From Styela clava (Eukaryota), in contig NC_135250.1 of the NCBI RefSeq assembly GCF_964204865.1, positions 6,758,001-6,822,000 of the forward strand: DNA of 64,000 nt, written 5' to 3'. Of the stretch, positions 1 to 64,000 are shown piece after piece. The translations under genes were made by a program, and so were the position numbers. How positions within the stretch are numbered: the first letter of the stretch is position 1; every line of letters begins with the position of its first letter. Below the pieces are notes generated by a model. The model did not search any database, had not been told where the DNA came from, and saw only the letters and a list, made by a program, of their open reading frames with translations.

Positions 1-92
1 GTCGAATTTCTGTAATGCCGGACTCGTCCCATCCCCAATTTGGGGCCACTTTATTATAATAGAATCAACTTATGAAGAAGTTGAGATAAAAA

Positions 93-284
93 GGTAAACC
101 AGTAGTGTGTGTACCAGGATAGGCTTACACCATAGTTTTGTTCCGATTTTTCCTATTTTAGTTCTATTATGAGGACTGTTTGTGTTACCGGGGTAAATAG
201 GTTTCAGTCCCTTTACACAACTTGATGTAAAATAGGCGAACAAAATCAGTTACCTCCATATTGGTACACATACTTCCGGAGCCT
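93..284 (-). mobile_element. MITE family A copy
   Basis: GTAGTGTGTGTACCAGG...CCCTTTACACAACTTGATGT...TGGTACACATACTTCCGGAGC. Confidence 0.75.
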
Positions 285-323
285 AAAAGTTACCGGTATA
301 TTTTAAACAGATAACAAAGTTAC

Positions 324-527
324 CTTTAGTTGTTCAATATTAATGTCCTTGAATGCATGTGGATCCTGCCATCCTACATTGATTGGAAACTTTGATCGTA
401 GACTTACTGCACCATGCAGTAAACATATGTTGTGTAAACAAGGAAGATATTCAGGCCGAGTGGAAGTGGTGAAGATGTCTGCATCGACAACGGTGGAGAA
501 AAATCGAAGCAGATTGTCTTTCATTCC
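324..527 (-). CDS. DHC exon 89 (AAA6 lid); gene continues past window start
   Basis: GMKDNLLRFF...LHNICLLHGAVSLRSKFP..GW. Confidence 0.93.
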
Positions 528-3500
528 CTAGATAGAGGAGAAGTTTATTTAGACTAGAAATTATGGAAAATTGAAAAAATAAGGATAAAAACACGTAAAA
601 TTTTTGCAAATAATTGTGGAATAAAAGAGGCATGTGCTTGTTTGCACGTAGAAGAAAAGCTTGTAATAGAAAAAAGTCATCCACTCTTTCTCACGAGTAC
701 GAAAATATAGGAAGGTATTAACCTCATCGAAAACAAAAAAATGGGGTACATCATATGACTTAAACATCTCATCAGCTTTCCCCTCCCACGAGATAAATAC
801 AAAAATAGCAAGTACATACACCACACAATATTTTATAAGCTAGTTTTTTGACTCAAAATCAACAAATAGGTTTTCTGTATAAATGACTTTATCTAATATC
901 ATCTTGATAACTGGGAACTAACAAGACCAAACAAACATTTTAACACAGCACAAGAAAAAAGTTATATTCTGATGGAGATCAAAGCATATAAGGTGACCGA
1001 ATCGTATGAAAATCCATACCTCATACAATATTAATAAAATCTTTTTATTTAACATTACCTTGGGGTGATCAATCACAAGCTTTATAGATGTATGTAACAA
1101 TGGGTCAGGAAGAGCATTGGCTCTTGCTGAACAAGATAAAAACAATCGGAAGTTTGCATGAGCATCTCTGCTTGATCCGTGACTCGTAAGTGATGATGCA
1201 TTGTTGTTACTTTGTGATACAATCGAGTAAACGGTGTTTAGAAGATTCTTGTTAAGTTGGACATTGTGCAAAAGTAGCCACGTTCCCTTGAAATAGATTT
1301 AAACAATATTAATGTAAGGCAATTTTTTAACAAAACAGATTTTTTTAACATTTTTTTATGAAGTTCAAATTGGTAATGATACGAGACAACAAAAAGGTTT
1401 TGTTACAAATCCTCTCATATAATTAGTTAGCAGTTTAGTTCAGGCATAAAAGCATTATAACGATACAATTTTCTTATAAAGTGTTCTCTCATCCACACTC
1501 CAAGGCTCTGTGCAAGCATTGATACAGATAGAGCTGAACTGGAATTTTCCTGAGAGATTTTTGAACTATGACACCAGCATAATTCTTCCCAATGCTCTGT
1601 AAACTAGTTTTGCTTTAGTTTAATCTGGATGTGCAAGTAATTCCAATCCTTTTGCATTGCAAGCTTATACCTGAGTCCGATTTATTATCTATACCTATGA
1701 TGTTACAATGCCCTAACAGCTAGCTTGTGCGAAGTGAACAACGCATGTAATAAGCTCAATTCTTGAAATTACTAGAAAGCCTATGTTAAATAAAAGTGTG
1801 GTAATTAACAAATTCGAATTGTTCATTCTGTGACACAAGTTTGGACGACGACTTTTTTGTATGTCGAAGGTCATTGTATTTCATGTTAGATACTCACATT
1901 ATCCATTGCATTAGAAAGTCCAGTTCGAACTTTCTTTTCTTCTGATGATCCTTCGCCCACGAATTCAATCACTTGTAATTTGATTTCATTGTTTGATTCA
2001 ACTTGTTTTTTCATGTAGTCATGTATAGAGTTGTTTTCTGAGAAAAAAGTTAGTCAAAATTGTAAAAAAACGAATCCCAGAGTAATAAATTGGGTGAAAC
2101 TTGCGCCACAGAATTTTTTGTGCAATAAAAGTGGGCCACAAAGAAAAAAGTTAAGAACCCCAGTAAAGAGTCTGTTACGTAATCAACAGCCTTGTTCGAA
2201 GTAAAATTGTGAAGACGACCACAGAAATTTCTATGCTGTGTTGAATACCGGTAATCTTTTTATTTTTGAAAGAAAGAATAGTACAATCAGTTGAAATAAT
2301 AATAAATATTTCTCACCATTTGTGAACAATAGTATTATAGGCGTGTTTGGATCACTTTGCCGTACAGCAGTCGCAATATCAGGAGGTTCATCTCTTATGT
2401 ATTTTTTACCAAGAACAGATATTACAAATTCTGTAGAAGCTTGCACAATACGATCCGAACGTATCCCTCTGAAATAGAAAAATATGTTTGAAAATGGAGG
2501 AAGTAAAAAATAAAACTAAATCTATTACTGAAATTAGTGCTTTCTACAGATATAAATGGTTACCTAGTTTTTTGGGTCGACAGATACAGGCACTTAGGAG
2601 GTATCTATACTCGGCGGTTGTCATTAAGAATATGCTTGCCATTGCTCTTCAGTTTACACTGCGTGACTTCGCAGGTTCGAATCATGTGCGATAGGATTGC
2701 TGGACTCATCACCATCATAGGGAAATAGATAACTAATCAACAATTCCCATGCTATGGTTAGCCATATGATTAGGCCATCTCAATGACTTTCCTCTCTCTT
2801 TATAAGAATATCCTATCGTAAAAGAATATGTCGACCTCCAAAGCCCTGTTATTGTATTATATCAATTACGCCAGTGTGTGTTTAACATACAGAAACCTTA
2901 ACTAATAAAAATTACCATTCTCACAAATCTACTAGCATCATAGCAAAGAAAAAACTGAACTCTAAAATTTAGGAGATAAAAGTTACAATAATTTACCTTA
3001 TCACCAGTAATCTCTGAAGAGGTGTGTAATGAGTATCAGCATTATCAGGTAATCTGTTCTTGTTGGTTTGTTCTGGTGAATCAGCCTCGCATAAAACCCT
3101 CCATTGCATTTCACGTCCTTCTTTCGGCATTCGATCAAACGAGTCGTAGAACCAATCATAGTACATTCCCAACACCTACGGTAGTTCCAAAAAAATATTA
3201 CCGGTAATGTGAACTATGTTTTCGTTTTGTAAGAATTGTCTATTTTCGCAAATTTATCATATTCAGTTTTGGCAACATACAGTGCTGGGATGGCTCTATT
3301 CATCAAATTAGCTAAAGTTGGACTGGAGTCACTATCTATCAAAAACTCGAAGTGACCCGTGTTATTGAAATAAAATAACCTGGACTCATACTCAATTAAA
3401 CTCCAGTGAGACTTAACTCAGCGATTGATGCGACTCCAGACACGGATAATTTGTGACTTGAGACTTATGATTCTACTTTTTCGAAGAAAGTTTGCAATAA

Positions 3501-6500
3501 GTAATAAAATTACGATATATTTCAATTTATTCGATTCACATAAATTACGATTTTATTGAAAGTGTTAAATTTTTGATAGAATACTTATATAAATCATTTA
3601 AATTATTCAAAAAGACAAATTCCTTTCAACCAGAAGTATCATTTTACCTGAACGTTATGAAATTGTTCTTCACTCATCCAATCGAATATCTTCTTCGCTT
3701 GTGATCTTGTTTCCGATGGATGATGTCCTAATGCCGACATCAATGCTCCTCCATACGATGGAGCAATTAAGTATTCTCGTTCGCCAATGTTGACATTTCC
3801 TTTAAAACGAAAATTAGGTTTGACAAAGGATAATATAGGATTTTCATATTCACATTGTTCAAAGCGAAAAAAGTGAATAGGCTTCATAAAAAAAAAAATT
3901 TTCAATGTCTATATTATGAAAATTTCTCTTATATTATATATATTCTATTTTTTTTGGTAAAACAATACATTTTCATCAATGAACAATTTTCTACCGACCT
4001 AAAGAATCTTCAACTTCTAATGCCGTCATCAGACTAAATATATGGCGATCCTTCTCCAGTAATGACTTAGAAATCGTAGAAAAGATATTGTAAGTCATTT
4101 GGTTGCAGACAGCTTTCAATGATGATCTCTCTGATTGACGAATGTTTTCATCATACAATCTGAAAAATTCAAATTTGGCAGAATATTAGCACTTGAAAAT
4201 CATTGGTTTATTGCTGTATAATGGAAATTTTTTACAAATTATTCGCGAACCCCATGAATCTCTGCCAGCTTGTATAATACAGTGGATTGACAATTGACAT
4301 GCTCGTTACAGTTTGATAAAGAACGGATCCACGAATTGCAATCTCAGTGAAGCCTTCCTTCGCTCGTTCAATTGATTCCTCTGCATTTGCGATCTTTGTT
4401 TGCCTGGAATAGAACAGAAAATTGGCATTCTAAGTTAGAATTGTGTCAGATTTAAATTGGTTTAAAACAAGAACTCAAACAAAATTCTGAGAAACTAAAA
4501 AAGATAATGAAATTATTTCAATTAGTTCGAACTTCCATATACTCAATTCCTGCAAAAAATTTATTATAATTTTGGTAAATAGGTTAAGTAATTGAAATCA
4601 ATTGTTTGACTGAATTACATTTTTTCAGATTGGTACTAATTTTACCAATAGCCAACATGGAGCAATATATCATTATCAAAATTAACAACTTCAATTAGTT
4701 TTGAAATAAAATATCAGATTAAAAATGTTTGAATAATGCTTAGTGACATGCCAATCAAGTGTCACAGCTTTATTTTCTGCTTTGGTTAGTTCATAAGCCA
4801 ACGCATGGCTCGGCGGTGTGGGGCATTGTGCTAAGCGTTAGGAGTACGCTCACCACCACACTTCCCTGCCGGGGGCCGCAGGTGTGAAACTCATGCAGGG
4901 TTAATTATGTGCAAGAGGTTTGCTGGACACCTTGCTGCCGTAGGGTGGTTCACGTAACCGCTGGCTGATTATGGCTTCCTCAACCATCAGGTCCATGCTT
5001 CCAAATAAAAACAAATAACTGGCTAACTAATTCCATACCCGACATGGACTGGTAACAGGACGATAGGCTGTGGTTCGCCATTAGATTAAGCCGTCCTATA
5101 AGCTTACCTTTCTCCCGAGATAAATATGTGAATCCTATCCCACCTCTACCAGGATATAATTAAATTAGGTGCGCCAAGTCAAAGCAAAAATGATTTCGCT
5201 CTATAATCCTGCGCATAAGTTGCTGTTTGTATGTACCCTTGTTTCAGGTTATTTAAAAAAAAGTACTAAATGAAATATTGTCTATGTTACAAGTTAGAAA
5301 TCTCTTATTCTAGTCTTGTTTAGCATACAGATTGAAATGATCATTTCAGTTAGTAAGATATTCTAGTTGCGTCACAAGTTATTATCTTACATTTCCATTG
5401 CGTCATCATAGTTTTTCTTAATCTCAGTCAATTTGTGTGTCACATTCAAATCGTTCAGTAATCTATGTCCACCGACTAAAATATCTTTCAGTTGATTTTG
5501 TAATTCTGCAAGAACTTTCATATTTCTCGACTTTTCGATCTGCATGTTCGTCCATTCATCTCGAAGTCGTGGCTTTTCATGCCTCATGAATCTTAGAATA
5601 TGTAAACAAAATCTTATCAAAATGATAAAATATAGGAATAGATAAAACTGAAAGATACTCTCACCAAAATAGATAAATGATAACAAGAGATCAATTTTAT
5701 AGATAAGAAGATGATGATAGAATAAAATTTGCTCACCGCATCACTGATTACTCAAAATTAGTCAATATTATATTTTTCAACCAGTTAAAATCAGTTAAAA
5801 ATTATTATAAATTTTAACACACAGTTTGAACTGGGGAAGAGAATCTGCAGGGAACCACAGTTGGTTATAGAGCAGCAACACTCATGGTCTAATAACTAAC
5901 CAAGATTGAAAGTCTGGGTTTAAGGTTATGAAGATATTGATGGTTCACATGAAATGTTTTCATCATAAATACATCGACCATACTGGCCAAGCATGACTGA
6001 AATATTGTGATTAGATTAATACCTGTCTAGTAGTTCAGTTTTAATTCCATCTCTTGTGGTTTGATTGTACAACAGAGTGGTATAGGCAGCAAGTTCTGGT
6101 GGGACATGTTGTGGTAAACTCGTGGTGTGAAGGAACATTCGGAAATTTGGATTACATTCAACTTCATGATCACCAACCTGAAATAAATGATAAGATGAGG
6201 TGTTGTCGGGTATGGATAGATAAAGGTAGGGAGACATTGCTCAGTCGTCAATAGGTCTTACATTTGGGAATAAAAAGTTGGGTCTCTAGAATTGGTAACA
6301 ATTTAATTGTTAGTTATCAACCTTAGATTCGCACATCAAAATCATGTAGGTATGATTATGTGTAAAAGAATGCTTGACCTCAAGTCCAGCAAGGTGACTC
6401 CATGAACCATTTTTATTCATTAGGAAACATTGAACTATTTAGATTATATGTCAGCAAATTTCAGGAGGTCGGATTATTTTGAAAAAAGACATTGCTTTAT

Positions 6501-9500
6501 CCTGATCCCTTACCATCATTTTGAAAGGAGTGTTTCCTTTTAGGAAAGCTGATCTACATCTGAACAGCTGATGAAATCTATCATCACGAGCGAGTGCTTC
6601 AACATCACAGTATGTGACAAGAAGAATTTGTCCCTCACTCAAACTTGTTTCAAATTGAGAACGTAGATCCTGCATGAAAGATATAACGAGAACACAGAAA
6701 AAATGTTAGGATATTAATGTGTAAGAACATATATAAAAAATGAAGAAGAAAAAATACAGCCCCCCCCCCCTTTTATATAATATCCTACCAGGGCATAAAA
6801 ATTGTGTAGCGCATGATAGAATCGAAGATTCTAGGCTACGTGACTCATGGTCTTATGCAAAGAAAAAATGGAAGGCTTCATGAAAATACCATGAGAAATA
6901 ATTCAGACTACTGTAAAAAATTTGTCAATATTGAGATCTGAATATTTATAATGTGATGGTGTGTTAATATTTTATGACATGTAAACATCAAATAAAAATC
7001 ATTTTCTAGTAAACGTTTGAAATCTTTCTCAAGGAGATTTCTGTAAAAATAAACACTTACCCGGTACAAAACTTGTACAAGATGTGGCGTCGGTTCTTCT
7101 GGGACATCATCATGATTTTCTTTGCTCATATCTGGTGAGAAATATCCATTTATCCAATCAACAATTTTGGTTGTTGGGTCGCAAATCAAACACCATGTCA
7201 TATTGCTTTCCATCGCAGCCAGAACACAAGCATTTTCAAGTGATTGGTTATCTGTTGGTAGTTTCTTCATTCTAATTGACTGAACTTCTGTAGGCTCAAA
7301 AATGAATTCCTGCAATCTGGAAAATTAAAGGTAATGCATAAAGAGTAATGTAATGTTAAAGCCAATCGTTGATGAGGAAGTTTCAAATGCTGTTCTGAGG
7401 GACACTCATATGCAGAAGGATTGTCGAACAAATTGCCTCTTACATTGAATAGAATTGGTAGTCAATAAGCAGTTGTCCAATATATGTTTATTATCTTCCT
7501 ATGATATGGTACCTCCCTATGACTGGCTTGTATAAGGCCCTGTTGTGTGTGAATCCTTATATATCATAAATTACCAGCATAAATCAGCGTATTACCTGTA
7601 ATTGGTGAATAGCATCTTGTGTGGCAACGGAAGTTCGTAATGTTTGCAAACATGGGTATAGAACGACACCATACGTCTTCTTGCGTCGATTGTCATTCCT
7701 CCGCAATATGTTTGAAATGCTGCGGCAAGAATGCAGTTTGTCAAAACTTGTTCAACTGTAACGCTTTCATCCAATTCATTCTTCCATGCATTTTCAAGAG
7801 GCTTGAGACTGAAAAATAGGGTAGATTTTTACAAATAGGTAAGATTTACATATTTTCTTTTTTTGAATATTTTTCATACAATGGTGTAGGTTCCAGCACC
7901 TACTGACTGTCAACAGAAAAAATTGGGAAAAAATACAAAAAATTTAATAGATGATGACATAAGGACTAATGTTATCATTGCGAACAAGAAAGATGGAAGG
8001 CGTCATCATCAATTAGGTCATCTCAGAACTGGCTCAGATCCATATCGTAAAAAATGGTTGTAGTATTTCTTCTCTCTGTGAATCTTTTCTTGGTAACAAT
8101 AATTTGAGTAAACAAATCAATTCTAATGTGATATTATGATATAAATGTTTGACTAGAATTGAGAAATCAGGATGAAAAGGACGAAATTTTTGTAATGGCT
8201 ACCTTTCTAATGTTGCTAGTGCAGATCTCAGTCTTTCTTTCGATGTTCGAAGTTCAGTTCTCAAATGGTGTTTTCTTACAACCGCATTGTCATATCTGAA
8301 AAAAGCAAAATTTTATAGATTATTAAAAAATTTGGCAAATTATTATTTCAATTGCCTAGAAATGTAATTAAATTTTTTCACGATTATTTATCTGATCAAA
8401 TTGGATTTTCAATAGGTTTGCTCGGAGTAAAGTTCAGAGCCTTCAACAAAAACGGTAATAGGTACTGATGGAAGAGTTGGAATAACCACTAATGCACCAC
8501 ACACTAAATATAGGTCAAAAGAAATTGGTTTGAACAAAATTTAAAATTGAAGCTTGAAACTAAAATCTATTTTATTTTTATATCATTTTATTCATTTATT
8601 TGCATAATATTGTCAAATTGTATAGAATAGAATAAAATTTCATGTGCAATATGTCACTATATTTAAAATCAGAATATATTACAGGACAAAATTCTGGAAT
8701 ACCAACTATTCTGTCATGTACAACAACCTTCTTTAGTTTGCGGACCGGTAGAATTTCAAAACTAATTTTACGGACAGGTGCACCTTTAAAATCAACTCAA
8801 GATGTCAGAAAGACAAACATGTCTAAACGAAAGTAACTGCAACAAAAGTATGCAATTCAAAAGAAGACAAATCAATTTAATGATAAGTTTGCTTCTGTCT
8901 TTTTGATATCATACATGTCAAACATGGTTCTATTGAATTCCGTGGAGCAGCGGTTGGGAACCACTGATGTACGACACTATCTAATACTTGGAGCACTTTT
9001 TTGAGTGTAGATAGAGCCACATGATAACATAAATGGTGAAGAATATCTTACTTTTCTTGTAAATCGTTGACTAAATCTGCTATTTTTTCCACGTCATCCT
9101 TTGTCAGTCCATCAATGTTAGTTTCCTTAAAAACACTGGCTGCGTCACTTACTGTATCAGATTCAGTATCATTGTCTTGGTCACTTTTTGTTTGCGGCTA
9201 TTTAAACAAAGAAGAAAGTCAAGCCAACTTTAGTCTTTCCAACAAGTAAAAAAGTCAGTTTTACACAAAATATGAAGAAAAAGGATAATCACACATTTTA
9301 ACTGGGGAAGGCGATGCGCGAGGAACCAAATATGGTTATCGAGCAGCAACACCCAATAATAAAGATTCGATAGGGAATGTCATTGAGATAGTTGGCTCAA
9401 CAGACAATATAGACTCAATCTCCTAAACAAAACAAAAACTTTGGTGCATTAAAACCTTCGTTAACAACACTTAGTAAAATTGATATTTAACTCAGCTCCG

Positions 9501-12500
9501 ACCCCGGAGGATAAATGCTAATTCCAGACTCTGATGAGGGTCTTTGAATTGTTATTACAATTTGAAAAAATCGCTCAGTAAAATTAATGTTTTTTGAGAT
9601 TAAGTCATTGTAAGTTATTGAGTAAGTTTTAGCTTCTTTTATCATCATTGAAACTCTGCATTTCCGACAAATTCAAATTTTGAAAATATGGTTTTGACCC
9701 CTGAAGATACATGCTAATTTCAGACTCGAGTTATGACCTTTGAACTGTTATTACAACTTGAAATCTAAATAAGATCTCATTGTCCATTTTAATAGGTAAA
9801 AAAACGTTAACATTTTAAATTTTTACCTTTTGATCATCAATTTCAGATCGTTTTAATTGTTCCAGTTCAGCTTCCAAACCGTTCACTTTATCAGTTGCTG
9901 ATTTGAGCGGTCCACATAATCTTAATATAATATAGGTAGTTAAGTAATTGAAATAAAAATTGGCTGATTTGGAATTTAAATCGGATAGACGGTTGGCGCA
10001 TTGTACTAAGTGTTAGGAATACTCTTGACATCACACATCTGATTACAATGCCAGAATCCAAAAGATAATTGCGTGTGATATTATTGCTGCGCTCATCGCC
10101 AGCCGCCACTAGGTGGATCATGCTACCGCTGGTCAGTTTTGGCTTCCTCTACTACATTAGTTCATGCATCTGAAACAATAAACTGATTAAATATCCCCAT
10201 ATCTGACATGGATTCCCAATTAAATAATAGGCAGTTTGCAACATGATTAAACCGTTATATTGGCTTTTCTCTTCCAAAGATAAATATGTCAATCCTATCA
10301 TATACACTTGAATAAATGTCTTATATTTGACATACATTGTATATTCAACAATACTGATAACAAACTCAACCAGGACTGCCGCGTCTTCGCTACTATATCT
10401 TGCTGATGATATTGTTATTCCAGTCACTAATAAGGAAATAAGATAACAAAGATAGAATTAGAACAATTTAATAATTATATTCCAATAATTAAATGAAAGA
10501 GAAATAAATACTTGACATTTTTTTTCCAATTTTATCTAAAATTTAATTTAATCAGTAGATAGTTTTTAAGCCAATATGGACAATAAATGATGGATATATG
10601 ATTTGACACTTTTTCTTATGATGTTTCCACGTCTTTGTTCCCACTAATATACAAGAAGCTACAGTTTTGAGGATGAACATTTTTTTCGGTTCGGCCTTGT
10701 TTACTAAATTTATTACATTCTGGGTGAGGGAGGGACAGGGTATGTAAACCAATGATATTTAATGCCAACATAGTAAAAAGTCTAACGCTTTACCCACTAG
10801 AAACTTACTGTTAGGTTTCCTTTGTTGTCCCTGAACGGAAGTTGTATGTTCAAGCAATGACCCTTCACCTGTGACCCCTTCTTGACCCTCCTTGCCTTTC
10901 TTCAAATAAGACTCAACTTCAGTAAGAAGAGATGGTTCAAGTCCAGTTTCCCAGTTCACCCTGCATGATAACAGACAATATTTGATCCCCAATTTTCGGG
11001 ATACATTTTTTATTTTATACCATTTAAATGTGTGATTAAAAATTTATTTGAAAATATATTTGTTGATACTTACGCATGGATCATTTCAACAAATCTGACG
11101 GTATCATTCATAAAATTTTGCATGCTCTTCCATTTATTTCTATCAGCTGCTGATAAACCTTCTGATTTTGCATTCGATGCCGCTGCATAGAATAAGTATG
11201 TAATTAACAATTCCCAAATTTATAATATATTGTATATATGTAAAAATTCACTTTTACTAAATGTCATAGGATAGATAGATAATGATTTATATCCGAATAT
11301 TAAGTACACATTGCATAAAAAAACAATGATCATAAAATATAAACGAAAGGGGACGAGCAAGGTCAACGGGGTAGACTGACCCATGAGTTTACATTTATGT
11401 CAAAGGAAAACAAAGCATATAAGACCGTATTATCTTATGGCTCGAAGGTTAGCACATCATGCATCGAGCCATCGCACCCTTCGCAGGTTTGAATCGAGTT
11501 GGTGATGGGATAATTAGATGCAATTGGTTTTCTGGTCAGTTACGGCTTCCTGGGAAGGTAACAGGACATGAGGCCATGGTTCACCAGATGATTAAGTCGT
11601 CTTATTGGCTTTTTTCCCCCAGGATATATATGAAAATTCTATCTTTGTTCTTTTACCAAATGTGCTCTGCCTTCTTCCTTTTGCTTTCACTTTCCTTGTT
11701 GTTCGCAGAGTACTGCCCGATGAAACTCTTGATTCCACTGGTTCAGTGGTGTGTTCTCTGCGTCCGTTTTTAGGTGTCTTTGTTTCTGAACCCCGAGTAC
11801 CCATTTGTGATTGCTGATCGGGTCTCGTACTTAAATAAGGATTTGCACCCACAAGAACCATAACCATTTCAAGAACCTAAGAAAAAATAGAAAAATTTGG
11901 GGTATATATAAAATGAAGACAAAGTAAATAAAATTTGTGTAATTATATTTTGAAGATTTCAGAAGTGTTTCGTTTCTTTTATTCTTCTGTGAGTTGATAA
12001 CCTATTATTGAAGTATTCCTTGAATTTATCTAAATTATGCGACTGAAATTAGAAAAAAAAAACATTTAAAATAAGCACAAATTATTAGGTATTTGTTTGC
12101 TATGAAACTTAAATAAATCACAAAACATTAGCTCCATTAAAAATTGCAATTGAAAAACAATACTATTTTGCTTTAATATACTTACAGCATACACTTCCAA
12201 TACATGTAATACAGAGCAATTGCTCTTGTTTACAATGTTGTTGTTGTTTTTATAAAAAATTGGTCTCATTTGCAACTAATGATATAATCAAAGCAGGATT
12301 ATGATAACAACATAACAGTTAATTCTGTCTGTTAACCAATCATACCTGTGCAACAAGTACAGGTGGATTCTGAAATTTTTTGAGTCGTTCAATGCATCCT
12401 CTGTCTACTTTATTTCTCCACATTTCAACTTGAGCTTTAGCAGATGTCAAATTCGAAGTTGCTTCATCCAATTCTTTCCTAAAATTTGTTAAATAGCTAT

Positions 12501-15500
12501 GTTTCATTCCGGAAAGTGGGTGCCAATAATATCAGATTCATGAAGTCTATATACAAAGTTCTTCTGCTTTTCAGAGTTATGGTTCCCACCTAAGCAAAAC
12601 TAATTTACAGTATAGGTATATGTTCAAAAAATTAGGAGTAAATAATGATTTTGGTCAAATATTTGAAAATTTAATAAAATGATCTAAGTTTTATTAACTG
12701 ATCTTTTGATTTATCAGACTTTTGTTTAATCCTTTTGTCCAATCCCCTTACCTAGCTTCCACCAAGTCCTCGTCGATTTGCATTCTTTTTGATTTGAGAT
12801 TGGCTTCCATCATTTGTTCAAACAATTCATCATATTCATCTCTTTCTTCATGCAGTAGTAAAGTGTCATCATCAAACTCATCCTCGTCATCTTGTTGTAG
12901 TTGCTAAAATTTGAAATGTGTTAGAATGTTTTGCTTTTTGTGAGCGACAATATTGAGGAAATATTAGTATTGTATATGTTATCACTGCCAGGGCTATAGA
13001 GATAGTTTACTTTATGCCTACTACCTTGTTCTCGGTAGGCAGTTTTTTTTCTAAAAAAATAAGAACTCTCAAAATATCAGCGGCTGCTTCTACAGTGCCT
13101 TTTTCGGAGTGAAAATCATAAAAAAGGGTTGTATAAAATATATTAATATGAATCTATATCCCAGTTCACAACAAACTATCACTGGATCACTGAATTTTTT
13201 ATATTTTCAACTTATAAATGGGGATATTGAAAGTATATTCATAACAACTGTAAAAACACAATAAACATATTGTTTTCTCAACTTTCTGCAATGATTCAGG
13301 AACATTTTAGATCAGTTTTGACATATTTACGAGTTGAACAATTGAATATTCATGTATATTTTTTCTATACTGTATCCAGAAAATAATTTGTCTAATTATG
13401 AACATGCATGCTATAAAAGAATGTCGGCCTTGAAAAAAAAATTTTTTGTTGTGGTGATGATCTTACCTGTAAAAATGCAATCAAAGGTCCGTTTCCGATT
13501 CCGAGATGAGCTTTCAATTTTTCAAGTCTTGTAGCTTCAATAGTTAATTTTGTGAAAAGTTCTTTCACTTTGATTTGTGCAGAGGAGAATTGATTTTTCA
13601 ATACCTGAACACAAATATATCAATTTTTTTGTCTGTTTTTCAGTGTGATCTAATGAATGTTATCATAATCTAGCAAATTCTGATGGCTGGTGATCAGCAT
13701 AAATTCCATTTAAATGTCAGAGAGAGAGTAATAGATAAAGCTACATAAGCATAAATATTAGTGTTGTGTTTGGTTTTGAGGTGCCTGTATTAACATTCAA
13801 GATTGAAGTTTTGTAATTGTGAAAATTTTAGATAAGGTTAAAAAATTTTCAGAAAGGAAAAATGACAAGTAAAAGCAAAGAAATACTTGTCATCAATGAA
13901 AAGAAACAAAAATTTAATATGATAGCAAAAACAATATTCACCCCAATTGCTTTTTGCATTAGTCTTGCATCTTTGCGAGTTTCATCCAAAGTATCAAGTG
14001 CATGTTGTAATCGACCTGTCTCTCGTCTCAACTTTTCACTCGCGGCATTGTAAAGTGTGTGTAAACAATGCATAAATTTCCGATAAGTGTAAGGACCAAT
14101 GTAAATCTCATTCGCTGCACTGTTTTTGAAATCCCTTTGAAGTTAAAAGTACAATAATAAGGTTGGGGTGACCAAAATATTACTCAACATGAGTCACATT
14201 TTACAGTAACGCAACTTGAGTATGTTTTAAATAATTTTGAAACCAGCTTTTCGCATGAACTTTGACCTGAGGGCTTGGAATGACTTGATTTAACTTGAAT
14301 CAAGTTGCAAATAGAGAACTCCCAGTGAAACAGTGTTCGAATTGGCGTATTTGATGAAAATATCTAGAATCATCCTTATCCGACTTGGTGAATTGGCTTC
14401 ATTAATAAGTAAGTCCAATAGATTAGAATTCGGAATATGTTTAACGAATCAAAATCATGATTAATTACAGTTTTTAATCCCAGAAAACTTCTTTTTTAAA
14501 TTTTTATAACGTCTCTATTCACCTATGCAGTAAGTTAATCCTTTCCAGTAATATAGTTTTTGAGTAAGGTAGATTTGGTAGATCATATTTCTCAACTTTT
14601 ATTGTTTCCTTGTCTTTCTTCGTCTGCAAACTTGTACCAGTAACAGAAACTGTGGGATTGGTATCACCGCTCCATAATGTTTGTTTACAGTCACGAAGAG
14701 TCAAACTGAAATAAGAGAAGTTTTATGAAAGTTAGGTATGACATGATAAAATGTGTAACAAGTTATAATCCAGTGGTTCTTTAACTTTTATTATTCCTTT
14801 CAAAGACTCTTTTGCTCTTGGAAAAAATACCTAGATTTCCTTCAACGATTCTCCACCAGTTATTTTGTTCAACACAATAAAAAAGCGAACAGAAGAAAAT
14901 GAAAGAATAAATGCAATAATCCGCAAATAGCAGTTAATTCAATCCAGTCATTGTGAATGGCTCTTGCTCAGTGCGTCCAGAGAATGACTTCGCGGCCCCT
15001 TAGAAGGGTCAATGGTCGGTCCACTTTGAGAAACCCTGTCATACTGCCCTGTTGTTTATGGGCAGTAAGTTTTTGGAAGACTATAAATATTGAATTTTTT
15101 TATCATTCACAAGAAACTACATTGATTGTTTTTAAAATAGAAATATGATCCATACCTGTGAATGTTTGCAATTGCCATTGTAAGATATTCTCTAGTCTTT
15201 GAACTTGCTTCTTTTGCCACATTTTCATTGTTGATGAAGAATTCAGCTTGTTGAATCAATACTTCCTGAGGCCAATCTCGAATCCAGATAATCTATTTCA
15301 AATTTCAAAAATTTATTGAAAAATCAACTGGCATACAATGATTATTCGATCAGTGGCAAGCAATTTACCGTTATACTCTCGCTAGGATGTCCAACTTAAA
15401 ATTTTAATTTCAGAAATTTGTCATTATTTTGAATTTCGAGTAATCTAAAAAGCCATTTTTTGCCACAAAATACCATTCGATTTCTGAAACAAAATTAAAA

Positions 15501-18500
15501 GCATTTTATTGCAAAAATGACAAATTCAGAATGCCGGAATAAAAAAAATTGTCAAAAAATTATGAATATCCTTTCATATTTAAATTTTGTTATAACATTA
15601 GCCCCCAGTTAATTTTTTGCCTTTGAAAATTATATTTTTTGAATAAAAAAATAAAACATATGTAAAACAAACTTCGAATGATTATTTTTAATTTGTAATT
15701 AAATAATTGGTAATTGAATAAAATTAATTATATTCTTGATCTTTGTTACTAACCTGTGTTTCGGAGACAATTCCTGGATAAGCTTGTGATGCATCTCTCA
15801 ATAGTTTGTGATTAGGTGGAAGATTGAGTACAATATGAAGATTACATTTGACTCGGGAAACAAAAAATTTCATCGGATCTGACATCATATTTGGATGGCT
15901 TCGTCTTAAGATTGGTGCAAGAACCTGAATTACATAATTAGACTTGACTATATTGGCTTCGCAGGTTACACATCATAGGTTCAAATCTGATGTCTACTGT
16001 TCCTCCCAAAAATATTAGCTCTTCACAAATCGTTAGAGACCAGTGTTTTTTTCGGAGGGTAAGACGTAAGGTAAAGAGCATGTATAAAAAAACTCGAATA
16101 ATAGGACAAAATATTAGGATGTCAGCGTTTTATGAAAAATTTGAGATAATGAAAAAAAGTTCTATAAATGACTTAAATATTCAGATAAATTTGTTGAAGA
16201 ATGATCTAAAGAACAATGAGTAAATTCATGTCATGATATAGAACAAAGAGGTTTGGGTACTCCCGTAGTGTGTGTACCAGGTTAGGGTTAGGCCATAATT
16301 TTATTCTGATTTTCCTTATTTTAGTTCTATTACGAGTTCGGGGACTGTCTGTGTTAGCCAAGTGAATAAACCCCCTGCCCATAGGTTTCATTCCCTTTAC
16401 ACAACTTGATGTAGAGTAGGCGAACAAAATTAGTTCCTCCAGATTGGACACATACTTCTGGAGCGCCAAATTTAGACTTCAAAAAGTTGAATAAGTTTTA
16501 TTTAAAAACTTGATAAACAATAATGAAAGAGAATAAAAATAGATTATATTTCTGTCACAGAAAAAATTACAGTATTGCTTTGTAGACTAACAGCACTTGC
16601 CAAAGCACACAATGAAGATTTATTTTTCAGGGAAAGATTTGCTTAATGATATTTTAAATAAAAGATTTCATCATGCATTATATTTAATCACATCAAACCG
16701 ATTTGGCTTATTGTTTCAAAAAATATACTGTAATATTGTTATACTTAAACGCTGGCATGATGGAATTATTATCAAGCTTTGCATGAGTCTTTCATAGGTA
16801 GAGAACTACAGAAATTGTCGAAGGTAGAAGCATCCCAATTCTACATAGTTCATCTAATTTACTACTCTAGGTGAGGTTGTGAAAGTGATCACCTTGAACA
16901 ATGAACCAATCAGGGCTCAAGCACAAGATCTTAGGACTATTATCTGCCTATTAAAATGCCAAAATAAAAAAGTTTGCATATAAAGTGATAACCATTGAAA
17001 CAGAATCTGAAAGAGTAAAATGGGTCAAATACTAGATGCTAAAATGTTCATATCTCGAGTAAGGCTAGAAATGATGTCTTTAATCAGATCACAATTGCTT
17101 ACAGGATAGTTATCAACCAATTTCCACTTGTAATAAATAACCTTGAAATATCAATTTCAAAAATTTTGTTTATATATATTCATACCTTGACATACAATTG
17201 ACTGATCATAAATAATTTTGATTGAAAGCTAAATCTATTTTAAAATGTTAGTATAGCTAATAAATCAGTTTTTCAAATTAGATATAGATGATCAATTTGA
17301 GTGATTTTGAATGAAAACAAATATATTGCAAAGAATCAATAAATTTTGCTACTGATCATAACTTTTTCAAAAATAATCAAGCCAGGTGTATGTAGGTTGT
17401 ATAATTAACATAAATCTTCTAATATATATTGATTAGTTTTCTTTATATGAATTTTCTTGTTATGATGGTATTAATTGCAAGATGCAAAATTTGAGGTTCT
17501 TGCCTCCTATGTATTGTTAATTACTTGATGACCAATAAATAAAGTAGAACAATATGAAGAATATGAACGTTGAACATGCATTTGCAATTTACACTGCTGA
17601 ACAGCTGTGTAGTGTGTAAGTTTGAATCCTGAATATTTATGTTTGATACTACACCACATATTAATGCAAAGCTTTAATGTTTGATAAATAATAATGTGAA
17701 TATGGTACATAATTTTGAATCAATGTTTTAAACTAACTCTCTAACTCTCTCCTTCTAACTTTTATAAAAATTTATCAAAAATATGACAAAGTACACAATA
17801 GTCGAATCAAACTGCTCTCATCTTTTTGATAAATGTTAATACATTGAAAAATTCATTATAATTATTTCTTTCGCTGATAAATACAACATATATCTCGAAA
17901 ATACAATGACGACCGTGGTAAATATTGCAAAATATAGCATATTTGTATTCTATAGGTCAAGGGTGAGCAATTACTTTTCTGAGTGGGCCAGTTACAGATA
18001 ATAGACTTGGTTACTGGGCTGGAGACTCAAAACTCAATATGAAAAACTATCAATAAGAACAACAGCTAGGCTAACATTTTTATAATAATAAAAAGCACAA
18101 TGTAACAATCGAGGTCATTATGACATTTTTTTCATCTATATTTCCATCAGACATCAATATCAATAAAAACTATAGTCATAATTTTAGCAGACACAAGTGG
18201 GCCAGATGAAACATTTCGATGAGATCCGGCCCACGGGCCCTATTTTGCCCACCCTTGCTATATCTTATAGATTCGCCAGCATTTGTTCATATCACTATTA
18301 ATAAATGCTAGCTTTATGCCTGCGTCAAGTCAAGTTAGTTATGTTATAAAATAATTGCATATAGCTTAAGCAGTACCTATATCAAAAAAGCATTTGTTTC
18401 AGCTGTTATGCAATTCGAAAAATCATGGTTTTAGCATTTGATTTTGCATTACAAATAATAGTTTTCTGTTAAAAAGCATCATTACATTGGTATTGTTACC

Positions 18501-21500
18501 TGATCTGGATCGTTGCGATATTGTTCCAATATATACTAAAAATGGCGAATGACATCAAAAACTTGTAAATTAGGAAATGCTGTTTGAGTGAAAGTTAAAG
18601 TTTAGGCAAATTATAGCCACAATCTTTTCTAGTTTTTTAAAAAATGTCTGAAAAGATCATCAAAAACCAGACTAAAAAGATGTGAGTAAAAAATGAGATA
18701 TTGCATAGATTACTTAATTTTGAAAATTGTCTCCGTATAAATAGTCAACCCATACAGTCATAACGCTATTGTCTGTATGGTATAGAATACTGCTTAAATG
18801 CTAATGAAAAATTTTATCAAATATAAGAATGTCAATTGTTGATATTGTGATCATATGACACCTTATTTCATATAAATCACTTGGATTGTAATATAAGGGC
18901 TTAACAGTTGACTCACTTAGATAAGAATTATAAATCATATATTTATTGTCGTCACTCATGACTTTCTCACCTAAGTTGAGCTAGTTAATGAATCTCACTC
19001 TCTAACCAGTGCCAATGGGTCGTGATATATTTATTATTTTTTATTTTACGTGGCCTTACTAGGTCTAGGTCCCTTTTCACACAGGATGAACATAGAAATT
19101 TTCCTAATCTGAATGAGACGACATGGTTAAAAACTCTCAAATATTCTTGAATGAAAAACTGAAAGTATAATGTTGTTGGTATGATATGAAACAGAAAACA
19201 TCAAAGAAATACCTCGAGTGTAAACTGCTGGTAATGTACCTACCTGGAGTAGACCTTCAATTTCATCATTAGAAAATAGATGTGGATATTCACCAGCTAT
19301 GAGAAGACTGTTTATGGCATCAAGAAACGAAGGATCGTATAAATCTCTGGAAAATAAAATGAAGCATATGTTACATAAAGTCATATAAATTATTAATTCA
19401 ACGCTGAAATGGGGCAAATCAAACAGAATTGTATAAACTACTGTATAGATTTCATGGTCTCAATTTTTTACAGTAAAAACCCTCTTCAGTAGACTGCCAG
19501 TACACAAGAACCAATGTTATTTATAAATTAAAGTTCTTTTTGGATATTGTTTTTTTTTAATTTCGTAATTAAACTTTCATAGAGAAGACATTCGGAGACT
19601 GCAGCGCTGCAAGATGATTTGAAAATGCAACAGGGTTTAGAGGTCGATCAAAAAGTCGAACATTGCTCACCATTGCACATATCATGTTCACATAACCCAA
19701 TAGTAATGGTTTAGTGACCCTTTGAAATAACCAGAAAGGCTTCTTGAAAAAAAAAACAGAAACATTTTCTGAAATTGACAAGACGTACAGTGCGTGAATA
19801 AGGATTGCAAGCAAATAAAACAGTATACCTTGCTGTCAGTACCACAACCACAGGTACACCTTCTGTTCCTGCTATTCTAACAGCAGTTCTAAGACTGTCG
19901 AAAAACGTAGCAGGTCTTGATGCATCCACTTTAAAAGGTTGCAATCCAGCGACATGTAGGGCAAGTTTCGTTAGATTCGATAAATGTGATCCGACAGCAC
20001 CAACCACAGTCATACTTCCACTGAAAATTGAGTGAATAACAAAAAAAAAGATTTTTATTTGGTATCTTATAGCATAGCAATTCCTGCATAAGCAATTATC
20101 ACTTTCATAAAATATTTTATTTTTTGTTTTTCCCAGTTTAAAGTGTATGTAGTTATGTCAATTGCTTGCTTGTATCATAGTTTGACAATATTTAACTCTT
20201 TGAACCCTGAAAGCCGCTAAACCGGCTTTCCCGAGAAAGTCTTCTGACGCTGAAAGCCGGTTTAGCGGCTTTCGCATCCCGTAAGAGGTATGCAACTTTG
20301 AAACCTCATATCTCGCGAACCATTCATTATATTTAGACAAGTTTTACATCGTGTGAGAGATAACCTACAGGACTAAGTATAATTTCAAAATTGAGATAAA
20401 ATATTGTGATCATCTTATGAAAATTGGCAAAATTAAAAAGCATAAAAAACTTCTAAAAATTGCTCAAATCTAATTGACAAAACTTAAATTTGTTTACGAT
20501 TAAACCTAGTACATTATCGACAAAATTTGTAGAATTTGAAGATAGCTTTCCAGTGATACCATTAGATTGAACTTATGTTGCACCATTCAAATTTTAGAAG
20601 CATTTTTATTCGTGATTTTGTTTGTCGCAAGATCGAGGCGACGTCAAGGTGACGTAAATAACAACCTAACACATTTACGCCGTTACGCAGCGACGTTAAG
20701 CAATTACGTTGGCACGTAGCACGTTTACGTTTCATACGAGAAACACTTTTCCTCGCATGCTCGTAACGTCATTTACTTAAGTTCGTACTCGTGAAGCGAC
20801 TTACGACTTGTAAACGATACACGGGGAAATTTACGCATTACATCGGTTCGACTAAAACACACAATACGCAGTGTTATTGCCGTTTTAATTGCATAAAGAT
20901 ATGAAAAATAAGAATAGCCAAAATAAGGATTTTTAAAAACAGAATGATGGAACATATCGATGGATGCATTGTTTAGCGCCATTGCTGAGTTTTATTGTGC
21001 AATATTTTCTTTTTCCGATATATGAATACTATCCAATATTCCATCTGGACAAAGCTTTCGTTTAAAATCCATTGTAAATATAGCGATATCAGGAATGTAG
21101 CGTATATGCAGTAATTTCGAAAATCTAATGAGGCTGCAAAATGTAAAACACTGACCAGGTGAGCTACTGGTGCCACCATGTCTTCCGTGTACCCGTTATT
21201 ATTTTTTTTTTTATTCAATCTTCATGATATCCAACGGTGAATAATTAGCCTTGATGTTTCCGGCGGAACCTCATAAATTCATGAGGATCAAATATTTCGT
21301 TTTGGCCATTCATTTTCGTCCCATATCCAAATAGTAAACGTATATAAAATGGCCTTTATATTCTAGCAATTTTACTATGTTCGATCAAAATTCGTCTGAA
21401 AGGGTTTTATCTGCGGCCGAGGATATGATACTAATGCAATGAAGCCACAATCTGCACTCAAGCTGTGAACGACCAGATGTGCAATTGCGCAATATACCTC

Positions 21501-24500
21501 ACGCAAAGAGTTACGCACGATACGTCGCATGAACGTTATCACGACAATGTCGTCGTCGCCCTTTGCGTCCTTAGCAAACTTGGCGTCAAATAGTTGATAA
21601 ATTTTGTTTGCAAACCATTTGAATCGATAGTACAAATTCTGCAATAAAATGAGTTATGCGTATGTTAAGAAAGTCATACGTATATTCTCCGAAAGGTAAT
21701 TTTGTATACTTTTCAAAATTGTACTTATATTGATGATACATTTCTAAGAAATGTATTAAATATTACCAAAATACAAAAAAATAGTAGATGGGGCTACAAA
21801 TAGGCTTACACATCTCATCAAAACATCTCGTGAAAAATAATGCCAGTTAAAAATAAAAGACTAGATAAGCTTTTATATGATATATTACAGACCATCTGAT
21901 ATCTAATGGTTTAGAAGTTATTTTGATTTAAAATTAGGGATATTACAATTTTTTAACGCGTCAAATCGATGCGACGCCGTGGGAGGTCAGGGTGAGAGAG
22001 TAGCATCGTTCTGGGGATTCAGAGTTCAAAGAGTTAAAACTTATTATTGAGGCGAAGAAAGCCTTGAGAAGCCAGAGACAAAAGAAGCCACAAACCAAAT
22101 TAAAGAAAAAAAAACAGTGCAATACTACATACACATAAACCAATGTAACTACAGTAGTTGATAATCCGAAGCTTTATAAATATGTTACCTATCACATTAC
22201 TGATTGAATACCATATACCCATCTTCTCCCCAAAATAGGCATATACCATACTAAAATCTGAAAATTATAAATTCTACTAAATTCAACTTACCCATAAGAA
22301 TATGAAAGAACGCGGTGCATTCTGATAACATGGAGTAAAACATCATCACTCAACATCAGCCGAGTTATTGAATCTTGTGTTACTTGCCTATCTTCATTGT
22401 AATGGATGACATGAGCCTGAAAAGCCAAAAAATCATTTCATCATCCTTTTTTTGGCCTAAAATCTCCAATTCAGTCAGGTCAATAAGTGCACAGAATTCT
22501 TGGTATTGCAGCTAATCAGATTAAGCTAATTTAACATAACCAAGAAAGTCAATAACAGTTCAGTTAACATAGATAGTGGTTGCTTGCTTGAGCAGGTCCT
22601 GAATCCGAGATTTTAAACTTTCAGTCCACCACTGACCGAGACGAGGTCATCAGGCTTACATCAACAGGTTGATATTTGAAAATAGACAAAATCATATTAC
22701 CTGTAAATATTCATATGCTGCTCTCAATTCTGGTAATGGATAAAGTTTTACTTTGGTTGTTTCTCTTGTACTTGATGCGAGAGGTCTGTGGTGAACCTTA
22801 GCATCAACTGTAACAGAGATTTGGTATTTGAGTCCAACATCTACTCAAAGAAAGGTAACCAGAATAAAACTACTGATCTTTGACTTGAATTATGGGCGCT
22901 TGAACAAGCCCCAAAAGATGAAAAATTATAGCAGCAAATTGCTTTTTATTAAATACTGATTGACACAAGATTTAATATAATTCAGGTCAAGACAAATATG
23001 AAAACTGCTATGAGAAATCCAGCTTATACATATGCTCGGTGGTGTGGCCCATAGTGCTGAGCGTTAAGAATACGCTCGCCATCCTACCTCTGATTCGTGC
23101 GTGCGTTCGCAGGTTCGAATCTCATGCGGGGATGGTTATGTGCAAGAGGGTCGCTGGGTGGTTCACCCAACCGCTGGTCATACGGCTTCCTCCACCATTC
23201 AGTCCATTCTTGACATAGACAGGTAACCGGACGAGAGGTTGAGGTTCACCATATGATCAAGCCATCTTATTGGCCTTCCTCTCCCCCAGAATAAATATGT
23301 AAATCCCAAAAATGAACCACGTAATAACCTGCAAAGGTAGTAAAGTAGACTGGTGGAACTTCTGCATCACTTTTCCCATCTTCACCAGAACTTTGAATCG
23401 CATGACTAAAAAATTCTTTGGTAACGTTTTCAATTTCTCTTTCAAACCAGGCAAGATCAGAGGAACGACATAGTTGATCAGCAAAAAGTCGTTGCATTTC
23501 GTGTTTCCAGAATGCGACAACGTATGTTTCTGATGAACGGTTCTCCTCATCGACTCGTTTTAAACATTGACACATTTTTATAATTTGACGAAGACAGAAT
23601 GCATAATGTTGTCGGCCAGGTAGAGGACTATAAAGTATAAAAATATAAATGTTAATATAAATGTTTCGGGTTTATTTCCATGCCCACCCACCCAGGGTGT
23701 AATAAATTGGGTGGGTAACGTCAAATCAAACCCTTCATGAATAGTAGATCCCATCATATCGTTTGATATCAGTGCCTGATTGTACAGATAGAATGGAATC
23801 TTAAATAATGTAAGCAATATTCATACCTCGGTCTTAAAGCTTCCTTCAATTGTTCAAGAAGTTTACTGCAAGCTAGTGCAATTGATTCGTGAAGTTCCTG
23901 GGTTAGTGGTTTGTCAGACATGTTTGCTTCCAGCACTGAAAAAATGACATTGTGTACATCGGTTGATGACGCACTTCGAAGACGAAAAACAGCGAAATGT
24001 CGCAGCAAACGAGGATCAAGATTATTTCCAGGTGACGCAGCGTTTACAGACATTGTTGCAAGAACCTGTTAGCAAAGAACAAAAATTTTATTCAAGTGCT
24101 CATGAAAAATGAAGCCCAGGAACAAATAGTTTTATATTCTAGATTCTGCCTCGCAACTTAATCTACTTTTGATCATCCCCTTGGGAAAAATGTAGGTTAA
24201 GAGGAAGAGAGGAAAGCTGATGTGACAGCTCAATCATAATATGGCAAAACACAGCGTCTCATCCAGTTATGTCCATGTCTGGTACCAAAACAGTTTTTTG
24301 TTTCTGCTCATGAAACAAATAACTGGTTAGCTACTGTCATAAATGACATGGAATGGTAACCAGACGAGGGACAAGGTTAACCATATGATTACATCATGTT
24401 ATTGAATTTCTTATCCTCAAAGATACATATATATAATAAATTATATTCTATCCAACAGTGACTATTTTGAATAAAAATATTTCATTATTAAAAGAAAAAT

Positions 24501-27500
24501 AATAAACCCTCTGAAGCATAAAAATTATGAAATCTTTAAAACCCACCTCCAAACCTTCAACAGTTCTCCATTCAAATGGTTTATTCAGTTTACATATAGT
24601 TTGATCATCAACAAGAGAACGAAGCAATTCATTACATCTTTGTACGCCATCTATATCACATGACGGTAGATTCAAGTCATCAATGAAAGCCTGAATAGTA
24701 AAATATTGTTATCGATACAATTTCACCAACATAACTAGAAATAAACAGTTTCACGTCCCTATTCAGTAGTATGTATGTTTTTAAAGAAGTAAGACCTCAA
24801 ATGCTATATCTCGAATTAACAAAGTAGGAATAGCTGGGCCAATCCAGAAATCACATTGCCATATGTATCCGGGCATGGGATACATAAAACTTGATAATCC
24901 ATGCCAAAACAGTGAGATCAAGTTATTTTCACATACTACATAAAAGCTTGTAGAAATTCTACAAGGAAAACGGGATACTAAAATGTCTACGCATAGACAA
25001 TCATTCTATGTAACTCTCACTTGGGTATGGAAATTAAAAATTATGAACATTAATAGTTATAATACCTCTAGAAATTTCCCATCTCGTGCCCCATAAACAA
25101 ATCCTTGTCTATGTTGAATATTATGTTGCATGAAACTATGAAGTTGAGAAGCAGTTGAAGCTCGACTGAACACTAGACGTCGCAGAATACTGAATTGTTT
25201 GTCTGATAAAATTATAAAAATTATGTTATGTGGGGAAAGGTAACAATTTGAGGGCGGAGAAGTGTATCATACAGCCTGTGAAACCTAAATAGGTGGCCTA
25301 TAACAGAACGCATATTCCATTGTTTTCAAATACTTTTTCTTATTTATGCTGATACTATCAGCATTTTTGACTCTGTATAACGCCACATTAAGATGAAATT
25401 TTGTTTGGAGAGACTTCAAAAGCATACTGTCATTAAAATTTAAATTACTGCCTCTTGAAAAAAAGGATGTTAAATATATAAGAGGGAGGTTCGAATTAGG
25501 ACAAGTTCAACCTAATCAAGATTAGCTAATTATTCTTTATATAGTGAAAAAGCAGTTCAATGATTTGGTCCTCAGCTCCACTTCAATTTTACGTCTCACC
25601 CATTGCACGTTGTTCAGGGGATTGTATGCCGTCAAAAAAAAAGCGCCGGTAGAAGCAACCTTGGTCCTACCTTGAGTATCCAAAAAATCATTGACTAAAG
25701 CTGTTTTCCCGATTCCTGATTCGCCCACCACTAGAGTGTGCTTTCGAGCCATATGTGCAAAGTCAAGTAAACAACGAGTACGAATCGTATCGACAGTATC
25801 AACAAACACCTGAATATAACAAGAATGATATTTAAAAAACTCCATGTCCAAACTTTTACATGAATGCATGAAAATGTCTAAGCAGAGATGTTCATATCTG
25901 AAAAAGCTCGTAATGTTTTATTTATTGATATATATTATAGATTTTTATAAACATGAATATGAATGAAATGGTTTTCCATTGAGCTACATGAAATAGTAAA
26001 ACCAGTCAAGGTTGGTTATCAGAGCAGAAAATTTTAGGATGTTAAGCTTTTTCAGTTTTCATCATTTATTGTCAATTAACAGAGAATATTAGAATTTGCT
26101 GCTGTTATAGAGATAGTCGAAAGTTAAGCATGTGTTTGAGGACCAATCCACAAAAAAACTTTAAAACCGGTCCATAGTGTGAAAAGAGTATTGAATCCCT
26201 GTTTTAAAGGACATAAATATATGTCTCAATAATTATCTTCCTCACCTCTCCAAGCATGTCGGTTGTCCCTGTATAAGTAGCTTCAGGAACCCTAGCCATC
26301 CAAGTATCCCATTCACCTGATTCATCAACATAATAATCAAATACTGAAATATCATGGTCGTAATCTGGCAACCTAGAAAAAAGAAATATGAATATTTACT
26401 TATATATCACACATCCAGCAACCAAGCTGAACTGCTATATAATTTAGTTGCCTACATGTGCATTCCTCTATCTCAAGTTGAATATAACAATATATTCCTA
26501 CATTTGAAAAAACTTACGCAGATGACAATGTTCGAAGAAGATCACTGAATGTTTTAACAGTGTTTCCTTCCAGAAGTCCACCAAATGCCCAGACAAGACA
26601 AAACAAGTACAATCTCTCAATGTGAAGATCACCACCTGGAATTTTGAAAAAATTGTTCTTGTAGTATTTGTACTTCACGCCCAATAAATACAAGTATAAA
26701 TTCATAAAAACCAAGAAATCTCCAAGATATCTTACCAATATGTTGCTGATGCTCATTCAGCATTTCACCCAGCAATGTAAGACATGTTGTCAACAATCCA
26801 ACTTCACATACTGGAAGTTTTATCCTGGCAAAAATAAAAATAAAACAAATAGGAAACACAACAAAACCAAAATGATAATATTTATAAAAGAATTATTCTA
26901 ATTCAAGCAAGACCTTTGTATAGGCATTGTCATTGTATAACAAAATTCACAATAAAATCTACCTTTTATCATGGAAAACAAAGTTACAGACACTGTCTAA
27001 AGTTTTGTCGAATGCTTTTTCTAGAACACGTTTTTCATCAGCGTTTCTTTGTTCGAGCCAAGCTTTTGCAAGAGGACGCCAACCAAGAACGTTTTTATCC
27101 AGATAGACCAATCCCTGTAAAAATAAAAGTACAGTTGGATATGATGAGTATTAAAACACAAGGTTTACAATTACCATGTATTACAATAGTGTTATGATGC
27201 TATTATTTTATCTATTCCTCCTCAAAAAGAGTACTAAAATTCAGTCATTAGTCCTAGTCACTCACCGTACGAGACAGCAATGACGGAGACGCATTCCTCA
27301 AATCAGTTGTCTCAAATACAACTCTCATATTATCCGTGAGATAGAGTCGATCTCCATTACTCAGTTGCATGACTTTCTGATCAGATAATGCACCGTTGAG
27401 ACGATCAGCCCAAGAAGATACTAACGGACCATCAAGACAGAGCCACGTTGTACTTTGATTCTGCATAGAATAAATACATATGAATCATTAATAGGATGGA

Positions 27501-63599: not shown

Positions 63600-63651
63600 C
63601 TGAATAAAAGAATATGACAGAGAAATATGATGGTGATAATGGCATAATGAT

Positions 63652-63810
63652 TGGATAGAATTTACTATTTACATATTTATCCAGGGGGACAGGAAAACCA
63701 ATAAGACGGCTCAATCATGGCCTCTTGTCCGATTACCAGTCCATGTGGGGTATTGGATTAGTTAGCCAATTATTTGTTTTTGGAAGCATGGACATGTGAG
63801 AAAGCCGTAA
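63652..63810 (-). mobile_element. SINE 3' fragment
   Basis: Reverse complement of the SINE tail (TTACCAGTCCATGT, TTAGTTAGCCAATTATTTGTT). Confidence 0.6.
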
Positions 63811-64000
63811 TGACAATAGCCTTTGGCAAATTGCAGAAAAGTGGGATGAGAGTTGCATAATTCTTTTGGGGAGAAATCGAACAATAAGAGCATAAGTCTA
63901 ACTCTGGTATAAGTATAGATAACTAGTGATTCGTTTCAGCTGCATGAATCTGAATGATGCAAAAAGCCACAATGAACCGGCCGGCACATAAACCGCGCTG

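Follow-up and report, generated by a model that had tools for sequence, protein, structure and literature searches.

DNAHX is a DNAH8-like extra heavy chain of about 5,270 aa (XP_041462850) from sea-urchin sperm (PMC11785096). According to the accessible part of the preprint, both helices of its stalk coiled coil (CC1 and CC2) carry insertions, AlphaFold predicts a folded-back stalk, and density for the distal stalk is missing. Its microtubule-binding domain (MTBD) has inserts ahead of helix 3 (pre-H3) as well as at helix 5 (H5), and the small domain of AAA4 (AAA4S) has a pre-sensor II insert made of a hairpin plus a helix. AAA1 is ATP-trapped in the pre-powerstroke state, with no post-powerstroke particles in sea urchin, and DNAHX forms a phi-like heterodimer with an unnamed chain bearing a straight stalk. 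Across four species that are more distant, the inserts differ in length, and the authors inferred a loss of microtubule binding (PMC11785096). Here we analyzed a stretch of Styela clava DNA of 64,000 nt (GCF_964204865.1, NC_135250.1, 6,758,001–6,822,000), called the window below. Its minus strand encodes a divergent axonemal dynein heavy chain with a class-3-type tail (1..64000). We estimate a probability of about 0.82 that this gene is a DNAHX (class-12) dynein, in which CC1 and CC2 are broken at a similar level by two acidic inserts, spliced and conserved, that form a hinge. All feature coordinates are relative to the window and refer to the minus strand.

The window gene probably also belongs to class 12 of Kollmar. 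Class 12 is holozoan, its tail is class-3-like, and it has "an extremely unusual stalk domain"; a class-12/13 dimer was proposed in 2016 (PMC5100056, accessible text). Stalk length itself is nearly invariant, with 99% of 534 dyneins sharing one length. Three stalk indel mutants lost the coupling of ATPase to microtubule binding, and seven, mostly in CC1, were still motile (PMC6600642, accessible text).

Acidic inserts in both helices of the stalk

Pfam matches to DHC_N1, DHC_N2, and AAA_6/7/8/9 were each found on single exons of the minus-strand gene. A DHC_N1 exon sits immediately beyond the high end of the window, and the gene extends outside it. The spliced stalk model comprised 833 codons without a stop. 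In RNA-like contigs from 4/4 runs of two studies (run type guessed, probably RNA), all stalk exons from 14134 to 7596, including both acidic exons, were joined at canonical sites; the joints 13467/12903, 12752/12478, 9827/9197, and 9052/8295 lay at GT-AG sites. The CC1 exons (13467–13604 and 12752–12903) and the CC2 exon (9052–9197) read as the preliminary description had given them from the letters, and the RNA-like contigs spliced every one of them as read. No joint skipping an acidic exon was listed in the contigs of the four runs, in which rare isoforms are lost; since contigs drop such isoforms, some skipping may still occur.

Other dynein stalks of the same genome were modeled with a spliced aligner, and the spans between fixed anchor residues were measured. 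The partial paralogue model L028 was excluded, and L017 was used for CC2 only (span of 78). From the AAA4 Pro to the Pro-Pro of the MTBD, which spans CC1, 11 of the 12 canonical dyneins had one length and one model had a single residue more, whereas the window protein had 45 more. The Pro-to-Trp span of CC2 was 78 in 12/12 canonical chains and 115 in the window protein, an excess of 37 residues, or of 34 if the CC2 Pro is counted as shifted by 3. The MTBD span was 200, compared with 81–110 in the canonical dyneins. The CC1 excess was composed of a 41-residue acidic insert and 4 residues just past the position of the conserved CC1 Pro, which is Ser here. The alignment gave a net insertion in both helices, and the 35–40 aa per insert estimated from the letters came close to the measured sizes.

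The CC1 insert was best placed 29–31 residues before the CC1 Pro position. The CC2 insert (34–37 residues) was best placed 21–23 residues past the CC2 Pro, with placements of 19–26 falling within 3 score units and weaker side optima at 10 and 33. These positions are near the 25–30 residues from the MTBD proposed earlier. Because the two distances are similar (29–31 and approximately 22), the breaks would roughly face each other, as the preliminary description had supposed for the antiparallel coil. Two random sites would lie within 2–7 residues of each other with a chance of 10–21%, so facing alone is weak evidence. The registry offsets of 3 and 7 residues count from the two prolines. The offset between the two inserts was approximately 8 residues, close to those of the two stalk registries, 3 to 7 (PMC6629372, accessible text). 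The proximal coil aligned with canonical stalks without gaps. With the inserts set aside, H1–H6 and both coils matched a profile of the genome's own stalks in five pieces, and the Pfam MT profile gave no match at this locus.

A metagenome scan revealed two loci (L025 and L026) of one other species, mutually 99.9% identical, which provided an orthologue model without RNA support. Matches in the protein database were single-exon orthologue fragments (P0001, P0003, P0004, P0008, and P0009), and querying with the Walker B exon returned no candidate. The orthologue keeps the Gly-rich turn at the start of the CC1 insert, both acidic coil inserts, and, in its MTBD, the basic pre-H3 loop as well as the insert at H5, so both acidic inserts are conserved in this one species.

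The start of the CC1 insert (13467..13502) combines the Gly-rich turn with a short amphipathic stretch, both kept in the orthologue, and is followed by an acidic body (12817..12903) whose first 17 residues were modeled as non-helical and whose remainder continues into the distal CC1 helix. The whole insert has 41 aa and a net charge of −14 (40 aa and −11 in the orthologue), with 22/41 residues (54%) identical. Distal CC1, with the Ser and the 4 added residues, H1, and the start of H2 follow on two exons (12346..12816). The pre-H3 insert, at the flap site of the MTBD, is a basic, low-complexity stretch of approximately 75 aa on two exons (11145..11843) with a net charge of +9 (+10 in the orthologue). 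Profile alignment placed an insert of approximately 30 aa past MTBD helix 5 (10809..10896). Helix 6 (10336..10426) lies in a segment with 29/32 residues identical to the orthologue. In the spliced model, the CC2 Pro (9908–9910) and distal CC2 (9827..9920) come next, and the acidic CC2 insert (9105..9197) has 34–37 aa and a net charge of −6; its counterpart has 32–35 aa and −7, is 12/34 (35%) identical, and is conserved at its end. The strongest net acid charge in any 25 residues was 14 in the window stalk and 12 in the orthologue, against 4–7 in 12/12 canonical stalks.

In single-exon AlphaFold models, the acidic runs were non-helical and the helix restarted after them; the helix limits are rough (two sequences each). 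A four-chain complex model of the stalk exons scored 0.09, and an ESM Atlas search with the acidic exon found no match above 0.75. The preliminary description had also considered a longer stalk. Because the inserts carry Gly/Pro and acid runs and are modeled as non-helical, lengthening is unlikely. The inserts might also bind cations or the protein's own basic loop, a further suggestion of that description, which the conserved opposite charges (−14/−11 and −6/−7 vs +9/+10) favor.

The MTBD core was 94/109 (86%) identical to the orthologue and the coil 100/174 (57%; Fisher p = 2 × 10⁻⁷, two sequences). Three canonical paralogue pairs showed no comparable excess (58–66% for the whole MTBD and 48–77% for the coil); this benchmark also counts loops and is not strictly comparable with an MTBD core.

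Identity of the gene and its AAA ring

For 3/3 tail exons, the best matches were outer-arm chains of the gamma/DNAH5/DNAH8 type, and the domain order is identical to that of these class-3 chains. The genome has separate genes of the canonical class-3 type, at least three in number (L027, L028, and L030), indicating that the window gene is an extra gene. The genome's own class-3-type genes differ from it in having canonical stalk spans and an intact AAA1. Class 3 proper (DNAH5/8/15) was rejected as an assignment, as the window gene has neither the canonical stalk length nor an intact AAA1.

AAA1 was compared with the chains of the same genome. Its Walker A reads GNASSGKT (33087..33110) instead of the canonical GPAGTGK(T/S), with the Lys kept. 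Walker B has Asp in place of the catalytic Glu (32704..32706; LDDVHL vs FDEFNR), and sensor II has Gln in place of Arg (31387..31389); FDEFNR and the Arg were retained in 18/18 canonical chains. The Walker A loop, Walker B, the sensor I loop, and sensor II were all unlike those of the 18 chains. The Lys of Walker A, the Asn of sensor I, and the arginine finger of AAA2 are all retained. An insert in the AAA4 small domain (14523..14705), 76% identical to the orthologue, corresponds by position and size to the pre-sensor II insert of DNAHX. The AAA4S Trp-to-Pro span was 114, with approximately 56 extra residues, in the window protein and the same in the orthologue, compared with 53–60 in 6/6 axonemal paralogues and 47 in dynein-2. 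In a side observation (19822–20037 and 24544–25812), both the window and the orthologue have a degenerate Walker A in AAA4, and the P-loops of AAA2 and AAA3 are kept.

All testable sequence hallmarks of DNAHX were found: inserts in CC1 and CC2, pre-H3, H5, and AAA4S, a degenerate AAA1, and a gamma-type tail. These are the features given for the DNAH8-like extra chain (PMC11785096), and the window gene is likely a DNAHX dynein, judged by features; XP_041462850 and the curated class-12 chains were compared by description only, the PDB copy containing no matching chain. The class-3-like N-terminal tail is also shared with class 12. The stalk of that class is described as lacking a typical MTBD or coiled coil (PMC5100056, accessible text). 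The window stalk gave no Pfam MT match, but it aligns over H1–H6 and both coils once the inserts are removed. The MTBD flap of DNAH7 is likewise an insert between H2 and H3, with 13–18 residues rather than approximately 75 low-complexity basic ones (PMC6629372). The preliminary description took a DNAH5-style ordinary motor as its comparison and overlooked this known non-motile family with a degenerate AAA1.

A probable stalk hinge and its alternatives

The anatomy suggests how such a stalk might behave. The acidic inserts would form a hinge that lies approximately 30 residues below the MTBD. With both helices interrupted by a non-helical break, CC1/CC2 sliding would not be passed on to the MTBD, and the hinge would let the distal stalk fold back. 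AAA1 is predicted to be unable to cycle, which would make the chain a scaffold without motility (the proposal made for DNAHX) or a packaging partner for another heavy chain. An MTBD uncoupled from the ring, as the preliminary description suggested, fits this anatomy. It also fits the DNAHX fold-back model and the lack of density for the distal stalk of DNAHX (PMC11785096).

Several observations weigh against this reading. No other part of the stalk is as well conserved as the MTBD core, which is a poor fit to a plainly disabled MTBD. The orthologous stalk is a single one (n = 1), and its AAA1 lies outside the coverage. The assignment to DNAHX was made by features rather than by sequence comparison with XP_041462850 or class-12 chains. 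Sea-urchin DNAHX keeps Walker B, and its changes (Arg to Lys and Thr to Val) differ from those of the window protein (Glu to Asp and Arg to Gln), although AAA1 motifs vary across the family according to the authors (PMC11785096). In yeast, several CC1 indels of 5–9 residues left motility intact (PMC6600642).

The conservation of the MTBD core could have another meaning, compatible with the hinge and refining it. The acidic hinge may mimic the acidic tails of tubulin and bind the basic pre-H3 loop of the same protein, thereby masking a competent MTBD; once released, the MTBD would still bind microtubules, and the protein would act as a static tether or brake. Such a regulated electrostatic switch would explain the strong conservation, because a masked MTBD would still work. 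The opposite charges of the inserts and the loop are conserved in two species, H1–H6 all align with the canonical profile, the 86% vs 57% identity has no parallel in the canonical paralogue pairs, and the flap site, where the basic loop lies, contacts tubulin in DNAH7 (PMC6629372). However, the inserts vary in length in four more distant species and loss of microtubule binding was inferred (PMC11785096), the conservation could equally come from binding a protein partner or the folded-back stalk, and the paralogue benchmark includes loops. We regard the switch as a tentative possibility, with the odds against it.

The hinge reading was also weighed against two explanations that need no hinge. 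The inserts might be loops tolerated in register, with sliding intact, in a slow working motor with a longer reach. The gap-free proximal coil, the roughly opposite positions of the inserts, and the retained Walker A Lys, sensor I Asn, and AAA2 arginine finger agree with a motor, whereas the lost Walker B Glu, sensor II Arg, and CC1 Pro, the 4 residues added at the CC1/H1 junction, and the lack of post-powerstroke particles in sea-urchin DNAHX (PMC11785096) argue against it, making it improbable. Even less credible is an origin of the inserts by drift, within a gene that is decaying, or as an artefact of the gene model. This would agree with the low identity of the CC2 insert (12/34) and the missing Pfam MT match, and it is largely refuted by the splicing in 4/4 runs, the open frame, the CC1 insert (22/41 identical), and the AAA2–AAA4 exons, which are 51–88% identical to the orthologue. 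A pseudogene or mis-splicing was rejected on the same grounds.

The DNAHX preprint already reports the paired insertions in the stalk, so finding them here is a rediscovery at the family level. The details added are the acidic nature of the inserts, their position at about the same level, the sequence conservation of the CC1 insert, and the stronger constraint on the MTBD core than on the coil. These details were not found in the accessible DNAHX and class-12 texts (PMC11785096, PMC5100056); the figures of the DNAHX preprint may show insert sequences, and the words "acidic", "charged", and "class-12" were not found in its main text (PMC11785096). A search for later literature found no other paper on the DNAHX/class-12 family, most subscription journals being outside its reach. 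The DNAHX authors inferred that microtubule binding was lost (PMC11785096), and the strongly conserved MTBD core of the window protein questions the view of the domain as simply disabled.

A candidate partner and other dyneins of the genome

Another divergent dynein lies at approximately 14.00–14.06 Mb of contig C4 (G000:C4; L048 and L059–L065). It is class-13-like and has a DHC_N1 tail, of which one exon is clearly beta-like and one is ambiguous, and canonical stalk spans. Its AAA1 is without the GK of Walker A and the DE of Walker B. This gene fits class 13 and the described straight-stalked partner of DNAHX, for which it is a candidate. The mass spectrometry of the DNAHX preprint named no class-13-type chain, which weighs against such a partner (PMC11785096). 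If a class-13 chain were the missing partner, Kollmar's class-12/13 dimer and the point left open by the DNAHX preprint would be tied together. The full scheme would be a second outer-arm-like dimer of two pseudo-motors, with DNAHX as class 12, the C4 chain as class 13, and a tubulin-tail-mimicking hinge switching a competent MTBD; taken as a whole, we consider it rather unlikely.

A second divergent dynein, at approximately 9.50–9.57 Mb of C9 (L049 and L051–L057), has a tail of the single-headed type, a Walker B Glu-to-Gln change, and canonical stalk spans. It is likely DNHD1/class 11, the name being our own assignment. As a class-13 partner it was rejected, since its tail matches single-headed-type chains of 4100–4260 aa and has no DHC_N1 match. 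In both divergent dyneins, modeled without RNA support, the stalk spans were 140 and 78, equal to the canonical values, suggesting that the acidic stalk inserts are specific to the DNAHX-like family.

A heavy chain at G000:C5:15083996-15095999 (L001 and L016), which we take to be of the dynein-2 type, lacks introns and runs through 4311 codons in one open frame; elsewhere in the genome, the dyneins examined are intron-rich. Contig C13 (G000:C13:148676-461857) contains at least four partial, repeated matches to the dynein AAA1 profile, at profile positions of approximately 158–254 only. The one examined looked like a broken class-3-like fragment, possibly within a segmental repeat. In the window itself, an intronic, GC-richer array resembling a tandem repeat (62244–63257) has long repetitive open frames on both strands. 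A high-copy short interspersed repeat occurs at approximately 16250–16450, with similar stretches near 45317–45523 and 58228–59111, and is extremely abundant in RNA-like contigs.

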